Below, in pieces: positions 4,691 to 37,188 of a stretch of 55,755 nucleotides of DNA. A program made the position numbers and the translations under genes. The notes beneath the pieces are model-generated. The model searched no databases, was not told where the DNA came from, and was given only the letters and a program-made list of their open reading frames with translations. This DNA is from a bacterium (GTDB lineage Bacteria > Patescibacteriota > Minisyncoccia > Phycocordibacterales > UBA918): NCBI GenBank assembly GCA_030430425.1, contig JAUIFS010000002.1, positions 1-55,755 on the forward strand. Reading direction: 5' to 3'. Position 1 is the first letter of the stretch. The number at the start of each line of letters is the position of its first letter.

Positions 4691-5071
4691 ATGAAGGATT
4701 TTGATACATGGAATGGTCACAAGAAAGCCATCAATGACGGAGAAGGTAAATTATACTCCGAACGTGACATCTGGTGGTGTTCGCTCGGTGTGAATGTTGG
4801 ATTTGAGCAAGATGGCACAGGGAAGTCATATGAACGACCAGTGGTAGTATTGAGGGGATTTAGTCGGGCTGTGTGTCTCGTGGTTCCACTTACCACTTCA
4901 ACCAAAGAAAACAAGTATCATATCTCACTTGGGGAAGTAGATGGTAAACCAGCAGCAGCGATTATTTCTCAGGTACGGCTCATCGACACTAAACGCTTCA
5001 TCGACAAGATTGGAATGCTTGATAAGGAAAAATTTGCTGAAATAAAAAACGCCGTCAAAGGGTTACTCTAA
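4691..5071 (+). CDS. PemK/MazF-family toxin-like protein, no cognate antitoxin gene visible
   Basis: Family-typical pattern: FDTWNGHKK..., RDIWWCSLGVNVGFEQDGTGKSYERPVVVL, VVPLTTS, ISQVRLIDTKRFIDKIG. The 245 nt upstream holds only a 16-codon ORF. Confidence 0.75.
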   Translation: MKDFDTWNGHKKAINDGEGKLYSERDIWWCSLGVNVGFEQDGTGKSYERPVVVLRGFSRAVCLVVPLTTSTKENKYHISLGEVDGKPAAAIISQVRLIDTKRFIDKIGMLDKEKFAEIKNAVKGLL

Positions 5072-5196: not shown

Positions 5197-5218
5197 TGTG
5201 CGCCGGGAGGGATTCGAA
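5197..5218 (-). repeat. Exact 22-nt direct copy of the tRNA-Tyr 3' end (att-like)
   Basis: tgtgcgccgggagggattcgaa at 5197-5218 is identical to 5551-5572 (last 20 nt of tRNA-Tyr plus 2 flanking nt), in the same orientation. Confidence 0.9.
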
Positions 5219-5484
5219 GTTTACTTTCAAACGATACGAGTGATATAGAAATTTATTTATATATCCGAGTGAGTGGCGAAAGAAAGTTTATTTACAACTT
5301 CAGTATAGGTTGTCGATATTTTGCGCCTTACGTCACAAAGTGTCATTCAATCTTTTCGGATTCGTGAGCAAATTTGTGGGGTCAAGTTTGTAACTCACTA
5401 CGTTCATAACAACTTCCTCCCCGGTCTCGACTGTTTTTGTCCTAGGAAGGCACAAAAACATGTCTCCGACTCGCACAAAAGCAC

Positions 5485-5545
5485 GAAAGCAAAAAGGTTT
5501 GCTTTCTACAACAAAACACACATCCTAGGATGTGTGTTTTGTTGT
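5485..5545 (-). terminator. Bipartite hairpin module downstream of tRNA-Tyr
   Basis: 38-nt perfect palindrome acaacaaaacacacatcctaggatgtgtgttttgttgt (5508-5545) plus a 9-bp hairpin gaaagcaaa/tttgctttc (5485-5506). The same architecture follows tRNA-Trp. Confidence 0.7.
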
Positions 5546-5552
5546 ACTTTTG

Positions 5553-5635
5553 TGCGCCGGGAGGGATTCGAACCCCCGTAGGATAAATCCGACAGGTTTA
5601 CAGCCTGTTGCAATTGACCGCTCTGCCACCGACGC
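5553..5635 (-). tRNA. tRNA-Tyr (anticodon GTA), long variable arm, no encoded CCA
   Basis: Hand-folded: acceptor GCGTCGG/CCGGCGC (one G-T pair), D arm GCAG..TGC, anticodon arm ACAGG-CTGTAAA-CCTGT, long variable arm, T arm GGGGG-TTCGAAT-CCCTC, discriminator A. Confidence 0.92.
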
Positions 5636-5725
5636 GTGATACATAGCAGTATACCGCTAAGTGGGCTATACGTTATCACATATTCAGCAGAGATGAAAGA
5701 GGTATTTCTGTTACAATTGTAGGTA

Positions 5726-6778
5726 ATGAAATGGGGTAGACAAATACTCATTATTTTCTTCTGTGTAACAGTTTTTTTTAGTGCTGCAGCGGGAGTGCGG
5801 GCACAGGGATCACTCACGCAGCCAGTGGCAGACGACTCGTTGTATCCAGCGGGAGGCATTGTCCCGAGTGGCACCGGAGACTTTACACCAGAAGGCTATG
5901 GAAGCTGTGAGCTTGTAGAGATGGTTAATAACGTCATGCAATTTTTGATTGCGGTCAGCATCATCATTGCGGTGATTGTCTTTATTTTTGCTGGCTACCT
6001 TATGGTGTATTCGCGTGGTGACGCGGGACAGATACAGCGTGCGAAGGGACTGTTTGGGAATGTGCTTATGGGTGTTTTGCTGCTTCTTACTGCATACCTC
6101 ATCATCAATACTATCCTTGGTGTTTTACTCGGAAGTACGTCAGCAGCGCTTAACTGGAAAACTATTGAATGCTCGTATGCAAATGAGGTGGGGAAAGCGG
6201 CTGCATATAATGTAGAACTTACATACAGTGAGGTTGATTGGGTGGTGGTAGATAAATACACTGGTTTTTCAGGCTCTGGGGGCACAGGAGGTACTGGATC
6301 TAGTGGAGGTGGGAGTTGTACGGTGCCTTCTGACACAGGCAATGCTTGTCATCCAAACAATCTAAGCTGTTTTGGAAGTAAAGCTGCTGAGGCATCACAG
6401 GTTTGTAGCTTGGAAAGTGGCGGAGGAAATATAAAAGCAGTTTCAGGGACTGATAGGTGCAAGGATGGAACGTCCTTTTCCGGTGGGTTGTTCCAGGTGA
6501 ATATTTTGGCGCACTATAATAATATCCCAGGCTGTTCTAATGACTTCTTTAGAAAGAACGGTTCGGGTACGCAGGGTACTTGTTTGCGAGAAGCTGGTCC
6601 GGCTAATAATCCATACTGTGCAGTGCGCGATTGTGAAATTACAAAACCGCAGGTGTACAAAGCATGCATGAATGCAGTGTTTGATCCGAATTGGAATATT
6701 TCCTATGCGTGTAAGTTGTACAGTAGTGCCGGCTCTTTTAGAGACTGGGCTTATTCGGCTAATAAATGTGGCGTATGA
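5726..6778 (+). CDS. VirB2/TrbC-like two-helix pilin module fused to SLT-type lytic transglycosylase domain
   Basis: Signal peptide, Cys61, TM1, conserved SRGD loop, TM2, NWKTIEC, Gly/Ser linker GSGGTGGTGSSGGGS. The Cys-rich C-terminal domain has SLESGGG (catalytic Glu-Ser) and GGLFQVN (GLMQ-type) motifs. Confidence 0.8.
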   Translation: MKWGRQILIIFFCVTVFFSAAAGVRAQGSLTQPVADDSLYPAGGIVPSGTGDFTPEGYGSCELVEMVNNVMQFLIAVSIIIAVIVFIFAGYLMVYSRGDAGQIQRAKGLFGNVLMGVLLLLTAYLIINTILGVLLGSTSAALNWKTIECSYANEVGKAAAYNVELTYSEVDWVVVDKYTGFSGSGGTGGTGSSGGGSCTVPSDTGNACHPNNLSCFGSKAAEASQVCSLESGGGNIKAVSGTDRCKDGTSFSGGLFQVNILAHYNNIPGCSNDFFRKNGSGTQGTCLREAGPANNPYCAVRDCEITKPQVYKACMNAVFDPNWNISYACKLYSSAGSFRDWAYSANKCGV

Positions 6779-7275
6779 AATCAGCAAAGTACATAATACT
6801 TGCTTTTTGTGTGGTTATTATCACTGCAGCGGGAATAAAAAATATTTTCTTTTCCTCAGAAAATGATAATCAGATTGTTACCGCACTCCCAGAGTCTCCA
6901 GTGGGTGAATACATCCCCTATACTGACGCACAGGTATTCCAGAGCAAAACAGGAGTCCCACTTTCAGCAGTCGCGTTGGTTGACGATCCGTTAACAGAAC
7001 AGCTTGCAGATGATTTTTATGTGCTCACAGAAGACTCTGAGACATATGATATTTTTTACCACCAAGATAGTGGTATTGTTACTATAATGTTATACAAAGA
7101 GCCACTTGCGTTTACGCGTAGCTTAGCAGAAAGACGCTTAAAAGAAACATTGTCTTTTTCAGAGGAGGAGTTGTGTGATATGCAGGTGAGCGTTTCAACT
7201 AATGAGTATGTAAATGCGGGATATACAGGAATTAATCTCGGTTTAAGCTTTTGTGATGGTTCGATATCTCTATAA
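6775..7275 (+). CDS. membrane-anchored hypothetical protein (accessory A)
   Basis: ATG at 6775 overlaps the upstream TGA (ATGA), suggesting translational coupling. N-terminal TM YIILAFCVVIITAAGI. No recognisable domain. Confidence 0.65.
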   Translation: MKSAKYIILAFCVVIITAAGIKNIFFSSENDNQIVTALPESPVGEYIPYTDAQVFQSKTGVPLSAVALVDDPLTEQLADDFYVLTEDSETYDIFYHQDSGIVTIMLYKEPLAFTRSLAERRLKETLSFSEEELCDMQVSVSTNEYVNAGYTGINLGLSFCDGSISL

Positions 7276-10010: not shown

Positions 10011-10814
10011 ATGGCTAACATCGCACACCTTAACACTTCTGCCCTTGATACGGCAGCCAAGTTTTTCCGCACAATGAACAAAGCAGGAGCGGACTTCACA
10101 GGACCAATGCAGAGCGTCACCCAGCGTCGCAATCTGGTCGCTTATCTCGAAATGGGCTGTCCCAAGCTGAACAGTGACGGTGAAATCGTCACTCCGACCT
10201 TGTCTGATGGCGAAGAACTCGCCCGTCTCATCCTTGGGGACGACTATCTGTCCCCCGAAGATGTGGCAAAGGCATACGGCTGGAGCTACAACGACGAGCA
10301 ACTGGCGAATTTCGCCAATACGTTGCCCGATTTCGAAGAGCTAATGTGGCTTCGCTCCAACGGCTATATGCTGGTGGCGACCCTGCCGACCGACTGCAAC
10401 CTGCTTCAAGTTCGTGACCTCGACAACCAACTCTTCTACTCCAAGTCGGAGGGCTGGTATGCCGAGAGCAAGCACACGTTCTCTCGTGAGGACGTGGTCA
10501 AAGCTGGCGAATGGCTGATGGTTCGCAAAGAACCATATCCCAACTCTCGGAGCAAGAACTGGGGCGAGCAACGCTCGCTCCTCTCGGAAGTCGAACACGT
10601 CCCGAATGCTCCCGAAGTCGGCTACGCCGTCACTGCCTACTACAAGGTGTGTGGCGTGTATCTGCTCAAGGGCGTTTACGTTCGCACTTTCTCGGTTGAT
10701 GCTGACGGCAACCGTGTCATCGTCGGTAACTTCGACGGTGACGGTCTCGGCGTCTGCAGCTACTGGGATGACCGCCGTGACGAAGACTTCGGTGTTTCGT
10801 CCTCTCGGAAATGA
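10011..10814 (+). CDS. hypothetical protein (267 aa), compositionally atypical
   Basis: GGAGG 6 nt upstream of the ATG. No TM or signal peptide and no recognised motif. Strong C/T-ending codon preference: only 2 A-ending codons among the last 62, versus 15 of the first 60 clpB codons. Confidence 0.75.
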   Translation: MANIAHLNTSALDTAAKFFRTMNKAGADFTGPMQSVTQRRNLVAYLEMGCPKLNSDGEIVTPTLSDGEELARLILGDDYLSPEDVAKAYGWSYNDEQLANFANTLPDFEELMWLRSNGYMLVATLPTDCNLLQVRDLDNQLFYSKSEGWYAESKHTFSREDVVKAGEWLMVRKEPYPNSRSKNWGEQRSLLSEVEHVPNAPEVGYAVTAYYKVCGVYLLKGVYVRTFSVDADGNRVIVGNFDGDGLGVCSYWDDRRDEDFGVSSSRK

Positions 10815-10952
10815 CCTAGTTTTCAAGGAGAGCTTGCTCGACTATGAAAACGGAAATGCCCGTGTGGTAGAACCTTGATTGCTTGAATACTTGATATTCT
10901 CGCATTCTTGACCCTTTCTTTGGGCGAAGCCCTCGCTCCAAAATGGGAAACT

Positions 10953-10988
10953 GGACCCCTTGCTCACGCTTGGGGTCCTTATTTTTAT
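10953..10988 (+). terminator. Hairpin terminator
   Basis: ggacccc/ggggtcc stem, 12-nt loop, followed by ttattttta. Confidence 0.45.
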
Positions 10989-11141
10989 GATAAAATCACA
11001 ATACTTGTTCGTGTAGGTGCGACTACTGGTTTCATCTCACAAGTGTTTCTGCTTGAAACTATGTCAGCGTATTTGCGTTTACTGGATGCAAATAGAGTAC
11101 ATATCAGGTATGGATTTGATTTCTTGCCTAGCTTCACAGGA

Positions 11142-11280
11142 GGTCACAGGTTACTAACGATTTGATGTGGACTCGTCCTGACGGTTTCTAATTTCGGCGC
11201 AGGCTGCTCATTAAGAACCGCGGGACGCAGCTCACATCGTTTATGCCTCCTGCATGCGGTCACAGGTTACTAATGATTTG
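11142..11280 (+). repeat. Two 23-nt direct repeats (1 mismatch) 116 bp apart in a non-coding stretch
   Basis: ggtcacaggttactaaCgatttg (11142-11164) and ggtcacaggttactaaTgatttg (11258-11280). caggagg (11137-11143) is complementary to cctcctg (11247-11253). Confidence 0.7.
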
Positions 11281-11363
11281 CGTCGCAAGCTCCTTAAATC
11301 ATAAGTACCTTCGACCCCGCCTCGCTCGTAAACATCGTTGCGACTCCCGCTCGAGTATGAAAG

Positions 11364-11423
11364 GAAAGCAGTTTGCTTTCTAAAACGAAAAACCTCAGAC
11401 ATATGTCTGAGGTTTTTCGTTTT
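11364..11423 (-). terminator. Bipartite hairpin module downstream of tRNA-Trp
   Basis: 42-nt perfect palindrome aaaacgaaaaacctcagacatatgtctgaggtttttcgtttt (11382-11423) plus a gaaagca/tgctttc hairpin (11364-11380). Confidence 0.7.
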
Positions 11424-11430
11424 ACTCGAG

Positions 11431-11501
11431 CGGGTCCACGAGGACTCGAACCTCGGCTGACGGTTTTGGAGACCGTAGTTCTACCACTAAACTATAGACC
11501 C
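11431..11501 (-). tRNA. tRNA-Trp (anticodon CCA), no encoded CCA end
   Basis: Hand-folded: acceptor GGGTCTA/TGGACCC, anticodon arm ACGGT-CTCCAAA-ACCGT, T arm GAGGTTCGAGTCCTC, discriminator G. Confidence 0.92.
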
Positions 11502-11611
11502 TGTAACTGTCCGGGGGACAGTTACAGTTCTGTCTCCTCGAATAGTGTTTTGTGCACAAGTATTAATTACTCATGACGTGCGGTACATAGTAGGGGAATT
11601 TGCTTCTACAA

Positions 11612-12511
11612 TCAACCCTTTAGCCAAGTTTCTACTGTTGAGAAAATATGCTGTGTGTCAGTTTTGTCTACCCAGACTATGGACTTATCGCGTTTCAACC
11701 ATGTCATTTGTCGCTTTGCAAATTGACGTGTTTTTGTTTCTAGCTGTGTGCACATTTCTTCATACGTGAGCTTGTCACGAAGATGACGAGAAATATACCG
11801 GCACTCAAGTCCGAGTGCTTCAAGTCGGTTATGGGTGAGTCCATGTGCAATCAGATTCTGTATTTCATCGATCATGCCTTCTTCAAGACGTTGCATAAGT
11901 CGAATGTGTATATTGTGGTGAAGCTCTTCTTTAGGTAAATCAATACCGAGTGTGAGCGTGTCGTATAGCTCACTACTTGTACGCGGAGGAACTTTGCCGA
12001 GTGCGGCAACAATCTCAAGAGCACGTACAAGTCGGCGATGGTTTTGTGGGTCCATCATTGCAGCACGTTCTGGGTCTTGCAACTTGAGCTTTTGATACAA
12101 CTCTTCTGAGGAACACTTTTCAAATTCTTCTCGAAGTGCTTCATTGGGAGGTACTTCGGGACTGCTTATTTTTCCAAGCAGCATATCAACATAGAAAAAA
12201 GTACCTCCTGCAATGATGGGCAGGTTGTCTCGTGCAATGATGTCTCGTATCGCTTTTGCGCCATCGTGTGCAAAATCAGACGCGGTATAGACCGACATTG
12301 GGTCTGCCACATCGAGAAGATGGTGAGGGACGCCTCTCATTTCCTCTCTGGTTACCTTACCACTGGCTAGATCAAGTCCTGTGTAGACCTGCCGTGAGTC
12401 AGCAGAAATAACCGCACCTGTGAATTTTTTGGCGAGCATGATAGAGAGAGACGTTTTTCCTGAGGATGTTGGTCCAACGATACTCAATACTTTTGGTTTT
12501 GCTTCACGCAT
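11612..12511 (-). CDS. miaA: tRNA dimethylallyltransferase
   Basis: P-loop GPTSSGKTSLS, ISADSRQVYTGLDLASGK, PHHLLD; typical length (299 aa). Confidence 0.92.
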   Translation of the reverse strand: MREAKPKVLSIVGPTSSGKTSLSIMLAKKFTGAVISADSRQVYTGLDLASGKVTREEMRGVPHHLLDVADPMSVYTASDFAHDGAKAIRDIIARDNLPIIAGGTFFYVDMLLGKISSPEVPPNEALREEFEKCSSEELYQKLKLQDPERAAMMDPQNHRRLVRALEIVAALGKVPPRTSSELYDTLTLGIDLPKEELHHNIHIRLMQRLEEGMIDEIQNLIAHGLTHNRLEALGLECRYISRHLRDKLTYEEMCTQLETKTRQFAKRQMTWLKRDKSIVWVDKTDTQHIFSTVETWLKG

Positions 12512-27864: not shown

Positions 27865-28515
27865 ATGATAGATATATATTTTGTACGTCACGGACAGACA
27901 GACGGTAACCTCGCAAAACGACATCAGGCAGAAGTGACAAAACTCACTCCTGAAGGGCGAGAGCAGATCGTGCAGACTGCAGCATGGGCAAAAACTATAA
28001 AGCCGACACATCTCATTGCAAGTCGGCATGTGCGTGCCCTGCAAACAGCAAAGATCATTGGTGAGACAGTAGACCTACTTCCACAAACTGAAGATTTATT
28101 TATTGAATTAAAGCGTCCTGATCGTGTGTATGGGCATCGGCACCGCAGCGCACGGTCAGTTACGTATCTTATGCGTTGGTACTTAGGACTTGCAGGAGGC
28201 TTGGGTGAAAATGGAGAGGGTGAGTCATATGAGGCATTTCGTGCACGTTTAGATGCTGCACAGAAATTTTTAAAACAACTCCCTGATGGTTCACGTGTGA
28301 TTGTTGTCTCTCACGCGGTATTTATTGGCTTTATGGCTGCACACTTGTGTGACAAAGCCCCAGTGGCAATACCCGATGCATTCCGTTTATTTAGAAAAAT
28401 GCTCAAGTTGTGCAATGGAAGTTATTCCCATGTGCAGTATGACCCTGCTGCCTCAGAAGGTGCGTGTGCATGGGAACTCGTGTCATACAACAATTGTGAG
28501 CATCTGGAGGGTTGA
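27865..28515 (+). CDS. histidine phosphatase family protein
   Basis: VRHGQTDGN catalytic RHG motif, SRHVRALQTA, late VVSHAVF His. Confidence 0.85.
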   Translation: MIDIYFVRHGQTDGNLAKRHQAEVTKLTPEGREQIVQTAAWAKTIKPTHLIASRHVRALQTAKIIGETVDLLPQTEDLFIELKRPDRVYGHRHRSARSVTYLMRWYLGLAGGLGENGEGESYEAFRARLDAAQKFLKQLPDGSRVIVVSHAVFIGFMAAHLCDKAPVAIPDAFRLFRKMLKLCNGSYSHVQYDPAASEGACAWELVSYNNCEHLEG

Positions 28516-28566
28516 TTCTCGTATTGATTGTGGCAATATATGTGCTACTTCATACGAAGTAATCCT

Positions 28567-28637
28567 TGCCGGATCGTCTAATGGTAGGACTGCGGTTTCT
28601 GGTACCGTCTATCTAGGTTCGAGTCCTAGTCCGGCAG
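28567..28637 (+). tRNA. tRNA-Gln (anticodon CTG), no encoded CCA
   Basis: Acceptor TGCCGGA/TCCGGCA, D arm GTCT-AATGGTA-GGAC, anticodon arm GCGGT-TTCTGGT-ACCGT, T arm CTAGG-TTCGAGT-CCTAG, discriminator G. Confidence 0.92.
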
Positions 28638-28647
28638 CACTTAGCAT

Positions 28648-28671
28648 AAAACACCCTTTATGGGTGTTTTT
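28648..28671 (+). terminator. Hairpin terminator after tRNA-Gln
   Basis: aaaacaccc/gggtgtttt stem followed by a T-run, nested in a longer imperfect stem (28637-28681). Confidence 0.65.
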
Positions 28672-28681
28672 GCTTTAGTGC

Positions 28682-28804
28682 TGTCGGACAGAAACAGTCT
28701 GGGAGACTGTTTCGTTAGGACTCGAAGACCTTGCCTGATATTTCGCAAGAAATATCGACAAGGTGTACTGCCGCTGTAAGCGGAGAGATTCCTAGTCCGG
28801 CAGC
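28682..28804 (+). pseudogene. tRNA-Gln-derived pseudo-tRNA (acceptor and D-arm remnants, core replaced by hairpins)
   Basis: TGTCGGA (28682-28688) can pair with TCCGGCA (28796-28802). GTCT...TAGGACT D-arm remnants are present. The last 15 nt (28790-28804) are identical to tRNA-Gln 28624-28638. The interior holds three hairpins, including one with a GCAA loop. Confidence 0.6.
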
Positions 28805-28873
28805 TTTGAACACAAAACAAGAAAATAGGGGTTTCTAAAGGACTGCTTTGAAAGCTCTCCCAGAGCTTTCAAA

Positions 28874-28997
28874 CTAGTACCGTCTATCTAGGCTGAAACA
28901 ATCCATAGATTGTTTCAGAAGGTTGCCTGCGATTTTGACGGAGGGAAAATCGTGACAGCCTGTACTGAACATGTAATGTTCGAGTCCTAGTCCGCAG
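28874..28997 (+). pseudogene. 3'-half copy of tRNA-Gln (anticodon to 3' end) split by an 85-nt hairpin-rich insertion
   Basis: 28874-28892 (ctAgtaccgtctatctagg) matches tRNA 28599-28617 with a single change (anticodon CTG to CTA). 28978-28997 matches tRNA 28617-28637 with a 1-nt deletion. The insertion 28893-28977 contains an 11-bp and a 7-bp hairpin. Confidence 0.75.
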
Positions 28998-29036
28998 TCC
29001 GAGGAGGTCATCTGATCTGGGTTATACTAATGGTTT

Positions 29037-29045
29037 TGATATAAT
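29037..29045 (+). promoter_or_regulatory. extended -10 element TGaTATAAT, 6 nt before the ATG (possible leaderless mRNA)
   Basis: TGATATAAT at 29037-29045 and ATG at 29052. No Shine-Dalgarno sequence lies between them. Confidence 0.35.
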
Positions 29046-29051
29046 GTCTAA

Positions 29052-30050
29052 ATGATTACTCTTCCTCCAGAAATTGCAGAAAAATTACCTACAGCAATGA
29101 AAATGCCTGAGGGAACACTACAGTTTTCTGTGGCGTTTGAGATTGATTTTTTTGATACACATTTGCCCGGTGGACTTGTCTTTGAACAGGTAGCCGGACT
29201 TCATTATTTTCGCTTGGAACGGACAGATGATTCCAGAATCAAATTCTATCGAGCTGCACCTTCGGTCGGTACACAAATGTCTGTGGCTGATATTTCATCT
29301 GTATCTTCTGCGATGAAGGTAATGATTTTTCTCGTATGGTCGCCTGTAGAAGCTAAGATACATATTGGTCCAGCAGGAGTTAAGGGAGCTAAGCTTGTTA
29401 CAGGGGAGAGTATAATTTCAGACAAAAATTTTATGATAGATAGAAATGGAAGTGTTTATGAGGTGGGCTCTCCTGGGGTTAGTATTAAGGGTATAAGAGT
29501 TATAGAGGGAGAGAAAGTGACCTTGACACCTTCTGCTTATGATTACTGGCAAGAAACAAAAGGTGCAATATCATCACTGCTTTTGAATCACGGTGATGAA
29601 GATTATGCATCAAAGACAATAAAATCTAATGCAGCATTTATATTTCTCGTTACCGGTTTTGAATCTTACTGCAAAACAAGAGTGTACGAGTTGGAGCGGG
29701 AAGGTGTTGTGCTATTGTGGAGTGAACTTGAAAACAAAGCAGGTATCACAAGAGATCAATTACTTGGAGATACTACTAGCTATTTCCAATCAACAGAGAA
29801 TTCAAAAAAAATTTGGAAAACTTTAACTGGTATTTCAATTGCTGAGCTTGATCCTGCAGGATGGGAGGTTATGTTGCCAGCTTTTAAGTTTCGTCATAAG
29901 ATTGCGCATGTATCACCTATTTTGAGCATTATGAATGAAGGTGCTTCAGGTGGAAAACTCTTATTTAGTTCTAATGAGATAGTGAATGCGGTGGATGCGT
30001 GTGATTCTGTTGTCGAAAAAGTGCACACACAAACTTTGAAATTACGCTAG
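29052..30050 (+). CDS. hypothetical protein with C-terminal HEPN-like region (Rx4H)
   Basis: AT-rich ORF: two hand-counted 60-nt lines gave 28-30 % G+C, versus ~50 % in neighbouring core genes. The C-terminal ~150 aa look helical, with FKFRHKIAHVS (R-x4-H) about 50 aa from the end. The N-terminal ~170 aa are beta-rich and unknown. Confidence 0.6.
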   Translation: MITLPPEIAEKLPTAMKMPEGTLQFSVAFEIDFFDTHLPGGLVFEQVAGLHYFRLERTDDSRIKFYRAAPSVGTQMSVADISSVSSAMKVMIFLVWSPVEAKIHIGPAGVKGAKLVTGESIISDKNFMIDRNGSVYEVGSPGVSIKGIRVIEGEKVTLTPSAYDYWQETKGAISSLLLNHGDEDYASKTIKSNAAFIFLVTGFESYCKTRVYELEREGVVLLWSELENKAGITRDQLLGDTTSYFQSTENSKKIWKTLTGISIAELDPAGWEVMLPAFKFRHKIAHVSPILSIMNEGASGGKLLFSSNEIVNAVDACDSVVEKVHTQTLKLR

Positions 30051-35733: not shown

Positions 35734-35757
35734 ACACATAGATGATCATCTATGTGT
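35734..35757. promoter_or_regulatory. 24-bp perfect palindrome in the arsR-like/nrdB divergent region
   Basis: ACACATAGATGATCATCTATGTGT. Confidence 0.55.
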
Positions 35758-35764
35758 ATACTGG

Positions 35765-35792
35765 GTATCTATAGACAACTGTCTATAGATAC
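35765..35792. promoter_or_regulatory. 28-bp inverted repeat (13-bp arms, 2-nt centre)
   Basis: GTATCTATAGACA-AC-TGTCTATAGATAC. Confidence 0.55.
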
Positions 35793-35874
35793 TACCATAT
35801 CTCCACTGTGGTTTTCCAACATATTGCAACTGCGTATGTTGGCTTTATTGACTAACATTACAACACAACAAAGT

Positions 35875-37188
35875 ATGACCATTGAGAAAATTCGTAAACG
35901 AGATGGTGCAGTCCAATCTTTTGATAGACAAAAAATTGAAACTGCTGTTGCCAAAGCACTCTCGGAAACAGGTGAAGGAAAATCTGAAAGCACAACAACA
36001 GTTGTGGAAAAAATTATGCAGCACATTGATACATTGTGTACCAATGCGCAGACACCAGGTACTCCTGAACATGACGCAGGTCTGTGTGAAAATGGCTATC
36101 CTACAGTGGAAGAAGTGCAGGATATAGTGGAGCGCTCACTTATGGAGCTTGATTATTTTGAGACCGCAAAAGCATATATTCTCTATAGAAATGCACGAGA
36201 AAAACTACGACAACGTGATTTATTTAAGAAACGAACTGCCTTTCGACCATATGAATATCCTGAGTTGGTTGCATATGTAGATGCAATTCGGCATTCGTAC
36301 TGGGTACACACTGAGTTTAACTACACAAGTGATATTCAAGACTTTATGACGAATGTGACTGATGCAGAGCGTCAGGCATTGCGAAAGACCATGTTGGCTA
36401 TTGCGCAGATTGAAGTTGCGGTGAAGACGTTTTGGGGCAACATTTACCACAAAATGCCAAAACCAGAGATCGGTGCTGTGGGTGCAACATTTGCAGAAAG
36501 CGAGGTGCGCCATATGGATGCCTACGCACATCTTCTGGAACTGTTAAATCTTAACGATGAGTTTGCTTCGTTGCATGCTGTTCCTTCAATTCAGTCACGC
36601 ATAGAATATCTCGATAAAGTAAATACACTCGCACAAGCACAAGACAAAAGTGAGTATGCGCAAGCGGTACTATTGTTCTCACTCTTTGTTGAGCACGTGT
36701 CGTTGTTTTCACAGTTTTTAGTCATCATGTCATTTAATAAATATAAAAACTTATTTAAAGGCATGTCTAATGCAGTTGAAGCAACATCAAAAGAAGAGCA
36801 GATACATGGCATGTTTGGTATTGATGTAATTAACATCATTAAAGAAGAACATCCCGAATGGTTTGATGAAGCGCAAGTAAAAGAAGTTCGCGCGATGTGC
36901 ATCGAAGCCTTTCAGGCTGAAAGTGAAATTATTGATTGGATTTTTGCAGAAGGTGAGCTCGATTTTATGCCTGCTGATTGGGTAAAGGAGTTTGTGAAGC
37001 AGCGTCTGAATAATTCATTGGTGAGTATTGGAGTGAGCCCTGTATTTACTATTGACGAGGCATTGGTTGAGAACACTGATTGGTTTGACGACGAGGTGAT
37101 TGCAACAAAACATGTCGATTTCTTTGACAAACGTTCTATTAACTACAACAAACGAAATAACAGCGTAACGGGCGATGACCTATTCTAG
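35875..37188 (+). CDS. nrdB: class I ribonucleotide reductase beta subunit with N-terminal ATP-cone
   Basis: The ATG at 35875 gives MTIEKIRKRDGAVQSFDRQKIETAVAKAL (ATP-cone). Ferritin-like core with ESEVRHMDAY (ExxH + Tyr), VEHVSLFSQF, KEEQIHG, and an acidic C-terminal tail. Confidence 0.92.
   Translation: MTIEKIRKRDGAVQSFDRQKIETAVAKALSETGEGKSESTTTVVEKIMQHIDTLCTNAQTPGTPEHDAGLCENGYPTVEEVQDIVERSLMELDYFETAKAYILYRNAREKLRQRDLFKKRTAFRPYEYPELVAYVDAIRHSYWVHTEFNYTSDIQDFMTNVTDAERQALRKTMLAIAQIEVAVKTFWGNIYHKMPKPEIGAVGATFAESEVRHMDAYAHLLELLNLNDEFASLHAVPSIQSRIEYLDKVNTLAQAQDKSEYAQAVLLFSLFVEHVSLFSQFLVIMSFNKYKNLFKGMSNAVEATSKEEQIHGMFGIDVINIIKEEHPEWFDEAQVKEVRAMCIEAFQAESEIIDWIFAEGELDFMPADWVKEFVKQRLNNSLVSIGVSPVFTIDEALVENTDWFDDEVIATKHVDFFDKRSINYNKRNNSVTGDDLF

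Follow-up and report, generated by a model that had tools for sequence, protein, structure and literature searches.

Structured, tRNA-linked repeats behind tRNA-Gln in a Patescibacteriota contig: a covarying family tentatively read as selfish elements of tRNA 3' ends

Directly behind an intact tRNA-Gln gene, a 55,755-nt stretch of DNA from a bacterium (contig JAUIFS010000002.1 of assembly GCA_030430425.1; Patescibacteriota, Minisyncoccia, Phycocordibacterales; hereafter the window) carries an array of two structured, non-coding units, which extends from position 28638 to about 29000. Both units belong to a family that exists beyond this locus, is specific, covaries in its base pairs, is linked to tRNA genes on the tRNA strand, and takes its arms from the local tRNA. 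Presence and copy number of the units vary, insertions are nested, tandem arrays and decayed copies occur, and no protein gene is linked in cis. Bacteria of the candidate phyla radiation (CPR), or Patescibacteria, have genomes of about 1 Mb that are thought to be poor in repetitive or selfish DNA. We tentatively favour the reading that the array consists of two non-autonomous selfish repeats, similar to repetitive extragenic palindromic (REP) sequences, miniature inverted-repeat transposable elements (MITEs) or intervening sequences (IVSs), and specialised on tRNA 3' ends in a Paceibacteria-like (CPR) lineage.

The tRNA-Gln(CTG) gene lies at 28567-28637 (+) and was called by ARAGORN as well as by the Rfam tRNA model (54.8 bits). 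Its 3' segment from the T-loop to the acceptor end (S1) is the sequence that is copied in the elements downstream. An earlier note on this DNA, made from the letters alone, had described a mosaic of tRNA-Gln fragments and hairpins behind the gene, and a repeat finder recovered every fragment that it listed: a 15-nt exact copy of the tRNA 3' end, TCCTAGTCCGGCAGC, at 28790-28804; an 18/19 copy, CTAGTACCGTCTATCTAGG, at 28874-28892, in which CTG has become CTA; and a 17/17 exact copy, GTTCGAGTCCTAGTCCG, at 28978-28994, a copy that reaches 28997 if a 1-nt deletion is allowed. The reported hairpins are likewise all present (28691-28713; 28729-28763 with its GCAA loop; 28771-28783; 28847-28873; 28893-28918; and the 7-bp stem CGATTTT/AAAATCG), and two more can be added, namely the terminator-like one at 28648-28670 and, at 28967-28981, a second hairpin C. 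A chance origin of the fragment matches is refuted: none of 2000 dinucleotide-preserving shuffles of 28641-29051 (411 nt) reached 17 nt or a summed 68 nt, the longest exact tRNA match in them being 11 nt, while the sequence itself contains exact matches of 17, 16 and 15 nt in sense and 11 nt in antisense orientation. The 485-nt stretch at this locus folds with z = -9.1, and no open reading frame (ORF) of 60 aa or more was found within 28679-29051. The fragments fall into two tandem units, E1 (28638-28804) and E2 (28805 to ~29000), each with a copy of the tRNA 3' end at its own end. Run on the region, the tRNA models (ARAGORN, Rfam tRNA) called 28567-28637 only and recognised neither E1, which the note had described as a pseudo-tRNA, nor E2 as a cloverleaf. 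The features of E1 are as follows:

28638-28677 (+): trailer and terminator-like hairpin AAAACACCC/GGGTGTTTT (28648-28670), then a T-run
28678-28689 (+): outer antisense arm GTGCTGTCGGAC, complement of the acceptor 3' strand, the discriminator base and 3 trailer bases
28691-28713 (+): hairpin A, GAAACAGTCT-GGG-AGACTGTTTC, at the acceptor/T-stem junction of the antisense arm
28715-28726 (+): inner antisense arm TTAGGACTCGAA
28722-28785 (+): conserved core, matched by the covariance model R1 with 77.7 bits (E = 1.5e-15)
28729-28763 (+): hairpin B, in two tiers, with a C.A mismatch, a bulged U and a GCAA loop
28764-28770 (+): linker TGTACTG
28771-28783 (+): hairpin C, CCGC-TGTAA-GCGG
28790-28804 (+): sense copy S2 of the tRNA 3' end, closing E1 by pairing with the antisense arms

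With a terminator-like hairpin, an antisense arm split by hairpin A, a core and a sense copy, E1 is complete. Behind hairpin A follow the inner arm ending in TCGAA, GA, hairpin B, TGTACTG, hairpin C, AGAGAT and the sense copy. The terminator-like hairpin lies at the tip of an imperfect inverted repeat of 28 nt (28629-28656 / 28662-28689) and is kept with compensatory changes in two of the related metagenome loci (numbered with the prefix L), L194 and L086. The note had taken TGTCGGA...TAGGACT for remnants of the acceptor 5' strand and the D-arm. The pairing of this segment with 28790-28804 holds; as to its identity, an antisense copy of the tRNA 3' end fits better. GTGCTGTCGGAC (28678-28689) and TAGGACTCGAA (28716-28726) together match 22 of the 23 nucleotides in the reverse complement of 28618-28640, with the hairpin at 28691-28713 between them, and TAGGACTCGAA by itself is the exact (11/11) reverse complement of the T-loop and the T-stem 3' strand (28618-28628). 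The antisense copy extends over the complements of the T-loop and 3 trailer bases, for which a sense copy derived from the 5' half of the tRNA cannot account. The outer arm pairs with 28795-28804 in a helix (P1) that includes one G.U pair and covaries in L086 (GCTGGCAGGAC/GTCCGCCAGC). Having antisense and sense arms of the same tRNA segment, the unit thus pairs end to end into a rod that resembles a tRNA minihelix, and it leaves the preceding tRNA gene intact. Folded alone, E1 gives a closed structure of -60 kcal/mol (z = -6.7). A transcribed tRNA mimic, which the note had offered as its second option, comes closer to this anatomy, in so far as the predicted fold of E1 combines an acceptor-like stem with a single side hairpin and a helix that resembles a T-stem. 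Hairpins of the A type (YGGGR loop, GAAAC base) recur in many members of the family.

Comparison of E1 between relatives shows that it is strongly conserved. Together with its terminator hairpin it is 82% identical between the window and either L086 or L194, whereas the neighbouring His_Phos gene shares 66% of its nucleotides (62% of its amino acids) with L086 and 46% of its amino acids with L194. The differences between the three copies of E1 are compensatory in all five helices (terminator stem, P1, hairpins A, B and C). The arms of the L086 copy of E1 agree with one another and not with the local tRNA-Gln allele, which indicates that the unit behaves as a single coherent piece.

Evidence for a family comes from the core of about 65 nt that E1 and E2 have in common. 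It comprises hairpin B, which is long and irregular, the linker UGUACUG and a hairpin C whose UGUAA loop is invariant, and it is preceded by a hairpin A of the GAAAC type. Relatives were found through the neighbouring His_Phos protein, one homologue of which is named "Candidatus Parcubacteria", and a 21-nt pattern of the core was searched in metagenome contigs and in IMG/VR. At least 120 metagenome stretches matched the pattern, about 15 of 120 loci being chance matches, and there were 0 matches in the viral contigs of IMG/VR. The remaining loci have the complete architecture in common, down to the 5' half of hairpin B, which lies outside the search pattern; the conservation of its 3' half is partly an artefact of that pattern. 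A common 5' half is present in 92 distinct instances, in which GGTTG/CAACC is swapped for CCTTG/CAAGG. In the seed alignment of 53 core sequences from which R1 was built, 94.4% of the cells are paired (81.9% after shuffling), double changes occupy 118 cells (34 after shuffling), and 5/5 pairs of hairpin C covary. On the tRNA strand G.U pairs outnumber A.C pairs by 47 to 16, when one conserved C.A position that alternates with U-A is left out, and this excess argues that the tRNA strand pairs as RNA or single-stranded DNA (ssDNA). The single-stranded residues AA, UGUACUG and UGUAA are invariant, and the core is predicted to form a three-way junction.

With the covariance model, three copies were found in the window (E1, E2 and a third one behind tRNA-Tyr, 36.5 bits, E = 3e-6) and 134 sites in 537 kb of metagenome loci. 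Among 910 kb of other loci only two relatives match (L082/L083 and L086/L087), and 80 loci from other genomes gave no match. Scores of the copies range from 92 down to 30 bits, and in some of them pairs are visibly broken. Rfam 15 at its gathering threshold recognised only the 4 tRNAs in the whole window. With E <= 10 on 28400-29200 and E <= 1 on 10750-11620 only chance-level matches of the miRNA type appeared, and ribozymes, introns, omega/HEARO RNAs and tRNA-like structures (TLS) were without a match. A literature search of limited reach found nothing relevant to these elements, and the family is apparently undescribed, as judged mainly from Rfam. Several more specific identities were considered and set aside. 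Hairpin B fits a Watson-Crick register better than a K-turn; the element reads CUGAUAU where a hammerhead core would have CUGAUGA; a priming site like the primer-binding sites of retroelements was rejected because the antisense arm complements the gene trailer and not CCA; GGA loops of the CsrA type are not universal; and a mimicry of the tRNA-Tyr anticodon loop (UGUA) by hairpin C was considered as well.

The second unit has a different history, and its features are:

28805-28846 (+): spacer homologous to a spacer of L194, followed by two small pieces of tRNA, GGTTTCT (28830-28836) and GGACTGC (28840-28846)
28847-28873 (+): hairpin H2, 12-bp stem with CCC loop, in place of tRNA positions ~29-33
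28874-28892 (+): tRNA copy from the anticodon (CTA) to the T-stem 5' strand, 18/19 identical
28893-28977 (+): 85-nt module between T-stem 5' strand and T-loop, 28978 being the G with which the tRNA copy resumes
28893-28918 (+): hairpin A, followed by AA
28921-28960 (+): hairpin B
28961-28967 (+): TGTACTG
28967-28981 (+): hairpin C
28979-28997 (+): sense copy S3 of the tRNA 3' end, TTCGAGTCCTAGTCCG-CAG (1-nt deletion), with the 17/17 exact stretch

GGACTGC at 28840-28846 pairs with GCAGTCC at 28994-29000, and hairpin C of this unit recruits TTC of the T-loop. The core of E2, which was outside the seed alignment, is matched by R1 at 28914-28982 (55.8 bits, E = 1.3e-10). At the position of H2, L082 has a hairpin of the same shape and different sequence. 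L194 contains an uninterrupted 44-nt copy of the tRNA 3' half; the copy starts in the anticodon loop, and the spacer before it is homologous to 28805-28833. It follows that, in the lineage of the window, the 85-nt module was inserted precisely at the boundary of the T-stem 5' strand and TTCGA and duplicated no target bases. From these alignments E2 is best explained as a duplicate of the tRNA-Gln 3' half of older date, which would have received a hairpin and, exactly 5' of TTCGA, the 85-nt module of hairpin A and core. The repeated site-specific integration and decay that the note had considered simplest is upheld in one part: the 3'-half copy of L194 fits an old integration or duplication at the crossover point in the anticodon loop, and L088 has a large-serine-recombinase island at this tRNA. 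It fails for the material between the fragments, which is not the decay product of islands, because the same conserved three-hairpin module is present in both units and in more than 130 covarying copies behind many tRNAs. The amber triplet CTA at the anticodon position of E2 (28874-28876) is also found in L082 (~4971), though the other tRNA-like parts, in the window as in L082, follow the respective tRNA-Gln allele; this could reflect shared ancestry with gene conversion, or CTA could be part of the inserted hairpin. An amber-suppressor tRNA was considered for E2 and rejected, since there is neither a cloverleaf nor an acceptor.

The association of the core with tRNA genes is close and strand-specific. 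A tRNA is present in the locus of 75 pattern-matched copies, of which 73 share its strand and 62 are no more than 600 nt downstream of it; core copies usually stand 70-150 nt behind tRNAs, which are of at least 16 identities. The 3' flank of the copies repeats the tRNA 3' end over up to 22 nt, and on either side of most copies stands the T-loop-to-acceptor segment of their own tRNA, first in antisense and then in sense orientation; the canonical layout reads tRNA, terminator-like hairpin, antisense arm, core and sense copy, often with a further terminator behind. In at least 22 tRNA-linked copies a complement of the acceptor (7-11 nt exact), a hairpin of 24-31 nt and a complement of the T-arm follow each other in that order, so that the side hairpin takes the position at which the D and anticodon arms branch off in a genuine tRNA. 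The inverted arms of E1-type units measure 12-23 nt, equal the local tRNA and vary from copy to copy, whereas inserts of the E2 type have no inverted arms. T[CT]GAA, which is also the complement of the T-loop, stands directly 5' of the core in 75/115 copies. The nearest upstream gene is on the same strand for 96/114 copies (84%), the downstream gene for 62/106.

Units differ between related genomes in presence, number and position. Units derived from tRNA were also found behind tRNA-Gln in relatives, with an E2-like unit in L082, an E1-like unit in L086 and E1 behind the same tRNA in L194; an identical tRNA-Gln in L092 is without an element. Two strain-level variants, L122 and L192, differ by one unit of 134 nt, L103 contains an exact tandem of 142 nt, and variants particular to a lineage are common to the copies within one contig (L103, L162, L207). 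The module is also found inside full-length pseudo-tRNAs upstream of intact tRNAs, again 5' of TTCGA, and L185 has two modules, the second of which lies 5' of TTCGA in the anticodon stem. Tandem arrays of hairpin and core without any tRNA occur in L190 (2900-3330, -), L137 (6800-7180, -), L172 (750-1150) and L133 (7580-7860). Those of L190 and L137 come after the stop codon of an ORF, the first hairpin being made of the last codons of the ORF and an inverted copy of them. The C-terminus of this ORF (…IEGTARSMGVEVK) appears similar to that of ribosomal protein L11.

The tRNA-Gln locus of the relatives shows some further peculiarities. An intact tRNA-Gln can be set between 5' and 3' fragments of an older copy of the same gene (L082 4726-5100; L094 5707-5727; L194 1185-1270), the 5' fragment comprising positions 1-21 in L082 and L094 and breaking off earlier, at about position 12, in L194. 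In L082 the intact tRNA is enclosed by the two arms of a perfect 19-bp inverted repeat (CATAAAAGAGGTAATTCTT / AAGAATTACCTCTTTTATG), so that one tRNA comes to lie inside another in the fold of the entire locus (z = -10). In L088 a 504-aa large serine recombinase with Resolvase, Recombinase and Zn-ribbon domains (5702-7227) follows immediately after tRNA-Gln on the opposite strand, overlapping the tRNA 3' end, and is succeeded by small ORFs and an OLD-family nuclease, an island integrated at the same tRNA. Contigs of relatives (L081, L082, L083, L090, L094) repeatedly end inside or just past the tRNA-Gln/element locus, which fits repeat-induced breaks in assembly. GTDB representative genomes include no close relative, and looking up the exact His_Phos protein of the window gave no record; the best match of the clamp-loader protein (HolB/DnaX-like ATPase) is 54% identical and comes from Paceibacterota, where tRNA-Gln has the anticodon TTG and the type-1 core is absent. 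The succession of clamp-loader gene and tRNA-Gln is kept across Parcubacteria and Saccharibacteria (L001-L006 and L012 compared with the window and L082-L092), with the anticodon TTG in the GTDB representatives and CTG in the clade of the window.

Two of the remaining three tRNA genes of the window are followed by elements as well, tRNA-Leu being the only one without:

5552-5635 (-): tRNA-Tyr
5198-5551 (-): element behind tRNA-Tyr, with terminator hairpin, a small AGAAAGCAAAC...GCTTTC hairpin, antisense arm and a decayed type-1 core (5282-5359)
11430-11501 (-): tRNA-Trp
10990-11429 (-): element behind tRNA-Trp, with terminator hairpin, antisense copy TACTCGAGCGGG and cores of types 2 and 3

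The element of tRNA-Tyr includes, at ~5198-5219, a direct 22-nt copy of the tRNA 3' end. It adjoins an ORF for a toxin of the PemK/MazF family (4691-5071, +), for which no antitoxin was identified. The trailer region of tRNA-Trp has a GC content of 0.54 and folds with z = -6.0. The type 2 core reads GTCCCGCGGTTCTTA...TTAGAAACCGTCAGGAC|GAGTCC and the type 3 core GCGAG..CGGGGTCG..hairpin..TAGTAACCTGTGACC. Both stand in the same layout of antisense arm, core and sense arm as type 1 and are found behind tRNAs of other identities elsewhere, with copies beyond the window in L086 (5236-5345), L170, L153, L122, L192, L197 and L001.

No protein family could be connected with the units. All-against-all clustering and Pfam annotation of 1193 ORFs from 120 metagenome loci yielded only housekeeping families as recurring neighbours (PilM/N, RuvX, ParB, RbfA, a tRNA-binding domain, an aminotransferase). 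A Pfam scan of 20 of the ~55 ORFs of the window detected no transposase, integrase or reverse transcriptase, no Y1_Tnp domain was present among 30 scanned proteins (these 20 and 10 cluster representatives), and 1.6 Mb of loci contained no autonomous relative that encodes a transposase. Recombinases were absent from the neighbours of family members, the serine recombinase being found in L088 only, and between the tRNA-Gln repeats of the window there are no remnants of an integrase or of cargo. The direct repeats of the tRNA 3' part start in the anticodon loop or the T-loop, as they do in attachment-site (att) scars of integrases; comparison of the filled site of the window with the empty site of L194 showed no duplicated bases. 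As to features of IS200/IS605 elements, hairpins A, B and C are unlike one another and a cluster of tnpA/tnpB-type ORFs was not found. A pair of integron attC boxes (RYYYAAC/GTTRRRY) is missing, the base of the stem reading AAGGTTG...CAACCTG, and no Rfam model of group I or group II introns matches the module, which has only 65-85 nt. Elsewhere in the window, at 35752-37188 (+), the small subunit of a ribonucleotide reductase carries an N-terminal ATP-cone domain, an unusual architecture.

Under the reading that we tentatively favour, the units would spread and persist like selfish repeats of the REP, MITE or IVS type. They may move by way of a folded single-stranded intermediate (RNA or ssDNA) with the help of an unlinked factor, and would enter at or beside the TTCGA of tRNA-like sequence, while unequal recombination between the repeated tRNA 3' ends could lengthen the arrays. 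Selection would keep one tRNA copy intact and might also keep the terminator hairpin of the unit, which would now end the tRNA transcript. Such behaviour has parallels in REP/BIME sequences (with REPINs and RAYT), Correia, RUP and BOX elements, Rickettsia palindromic elements and the small dispersed repeats of cyanobacteria, which are likewise non-coding, hairpin-forming and present in high copy number, lie mostly outside genes, downstream of them and co-oriented with them, form tandem or nested copies, and may double as terminators or 3' stabilisers. As in REP-type repeats there is no linked gene, and any enzyme would thus be encoded in single copy elsewhere. The units differ from REP sequences in having a three-way-junction core in place of a simple palindrome, in their near-exclusive linkage to tRNA 3' ends and in arms that are copies of the local tRNA; moreover, a GTAG-type signature was not seen, nor was a RAYT gene among the 30 scanned proteins. 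With the IVSs of bacterial rRNA and the insertions in CPR rRNA they have in common that small structured inserts occur sporadically in loops of a structural-RNA sequence. CPR bacteria are known for insertions in their rRNA genes, as reportedly described by Brown et al. (2015). Unlike IVSs, the inserts described here reside in duplicated or pseudo-tRNA copies, so that the functional gene is spared, and the sequence of their core is conserved.

Several observations weigh against this reading. No transposase, recombinase or reverse transcriptase was found, so that the case for mobility comes only from distribution and polymorphism, and neither a target-site duplication nor any other mark of a known transposition mechanism is present. 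The acquisition of arms that match the tRNA of each individual copy is not accounted for, and neither is the strong conservation of E1, whose slower change than that of the adjacent gene, with compensation, looks in the alignments like purifying selection on an RNA in place. The co-orientation with the upstream gene in 84% of the copies fits a function within a transcript.

These last points lead to the view, which we consider possible if somewhat unlikely, that the units are functional RNAs of the host. They would be read through from the tRNA or the upstream gene and would present the core on a minihelix scaffold copied from the acceptor and T stems of the neighbouring tRNA; RNase P, RNase Z or the CCA-adding enzyme would handle the scaffold, and the core would bind a protein or act as a ribozyme, for example in 3'-end formation, stabilisation or regulation. 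Besides the slow, compensated evolution of E1 and the shared strand of 96/114 copies and their upstream gene, the strong covariation of the core and the preference for G.U over A.C pairs on the tRNA strand speak for it. The reproducible position of hairpin A at the acceptor/T-stem junction would give a tRNA-like junction, and the invariant AA, UGUACUG and UGUAA fit a tertiary motif or a binding site. The ends of E1-type units form an acceptor-like stem on a T-stem-like helix with one side arm, as do the tRNA-like domain of tmRNA, the module of YrlA/Y RNAs, viral 3' TLS and mascRNA, and their 3' strand is identical to a real tRNA, as in tRNA-scaffolded RNAs. Unlike in those structures, the T-loop is paired and replaced by a large insert, the helix runs past the discriminator base, no tRNA or TLS model scores, and there are many copies per genome. 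A functional RNA is also hard to reconcile with a terminator-like hairpin and T-run between the tRNA and the unit, with the identical tRNA of L092 that has no unit behind it, with variable copy number, arrays and many decayed copies, with modules inside obviously dead pseudo-tRNAs, and with three different families of core in one layout.

We regard it as decidedly unlikely that the units are genomic copies of a rod-like single-stranded replicon or retroelement of ~130-170 nt, a circle whose stem reproduces the duplex of the tRNA 3' end. The order S (the sense tRNA segment), trailer, hairpin loop, complementary trailer, antisense arm and core would close into such a circle, which would integrate either as folded ssDNA, in the manner of CTX phage at dif or of integron attC, or as RNA via complementary DNA (retrozyme- or viroid-like); the core would then serve as a site of nicking or recombination, or as a self-cleaving ribozyme of a new kind. 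This proposal has the merit of accounting for the very existence of the antisense arm and for the strand specificity, and the absence of target-site duplication agrees with it. The alternation of S, hairpin, antisense, core and S, together with the exact tandems, resembles rolling-circle multimers, and in L086 the arms and trailer of E1, which match each other and not the local tRNA, would form one continuous helix in a circle. Integron attC sites and the attP hairpin of CTX phage (XerCD) provide the analogy: there, too, structure on one strand is kept over sequence, inverted arms recreate a duplex, and arrays stand beside a regenerated target. The present units differ in having no R''/R' boxes, a target that is the T-loop/acceptor segment of a tRNA, and a core without counterpart. 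A free or permuted circular form was not seen, a gene for Rep, an integrase or a reverse transcriptase was not found, the viral contigs of IMG/VR gave 0 matches, known ribozyme models did not match, and E2-type insertions (85 nt, without antisense arm or terminal hairpin) do not fit. We think it unlikely that the family will prove to be either a rod-shaped RNA or ssDNA element that homes to tRNA genes with a new ribozyme or nicking site, or a set of new CPR functional RNAs on minihelix scaffolds copied from tRNAs.

It is highly improbable that the repeats are passive scars, that is, att remnants of deleted integrase islands with hairpins produced by chance or template switching and with neither function nor mobility: the 3'-half copy of L194 that starts in the anticodon loop does resemble a classical att duplication, a serine-recombinase island sits at this tRNA in L088, and palindromes of local sequence are frequent in these loci, but at least 16 kinds of tRNA in many genomes are followed by the same covarying core of ~65 nt, the window has no remnant of an integrase or of cargo between its repeats, and the recurrence, invariant residues and covariation of the core, which neither chance nor decay can produce, contradict this view. 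Direct repeats of the tRNA 3' part from the T-loop or anticodon loop, tandem units and a regenerated tRNA are indeed shared with the att duplications of integrases at tRNAs; unlike integrase islands, the units have 85-195 nt, no integrase or cargo, and an internal antisense copy of the att segment together with a structured core.

A structured and covarying element that is absent from Rfam thus stands behind most tRNA genes of a 55-kb window and at more than 130 sites in related metagenome contigs. Its invariant three-way junction is a candidate for tests of ribozyme activity or protein binding, and the covariance model can serve as a marker in annotation. If the units are selfish, they would represent a new kind of tRNA-targeted mini-element with arms templated by the target, and would be a likely cause of the contig breaks in relatives; if they are functional, they would form a widespread new class of RNA that is tied to the expression or processing of tRNAs in a major uncultured part of the bacterial tree.

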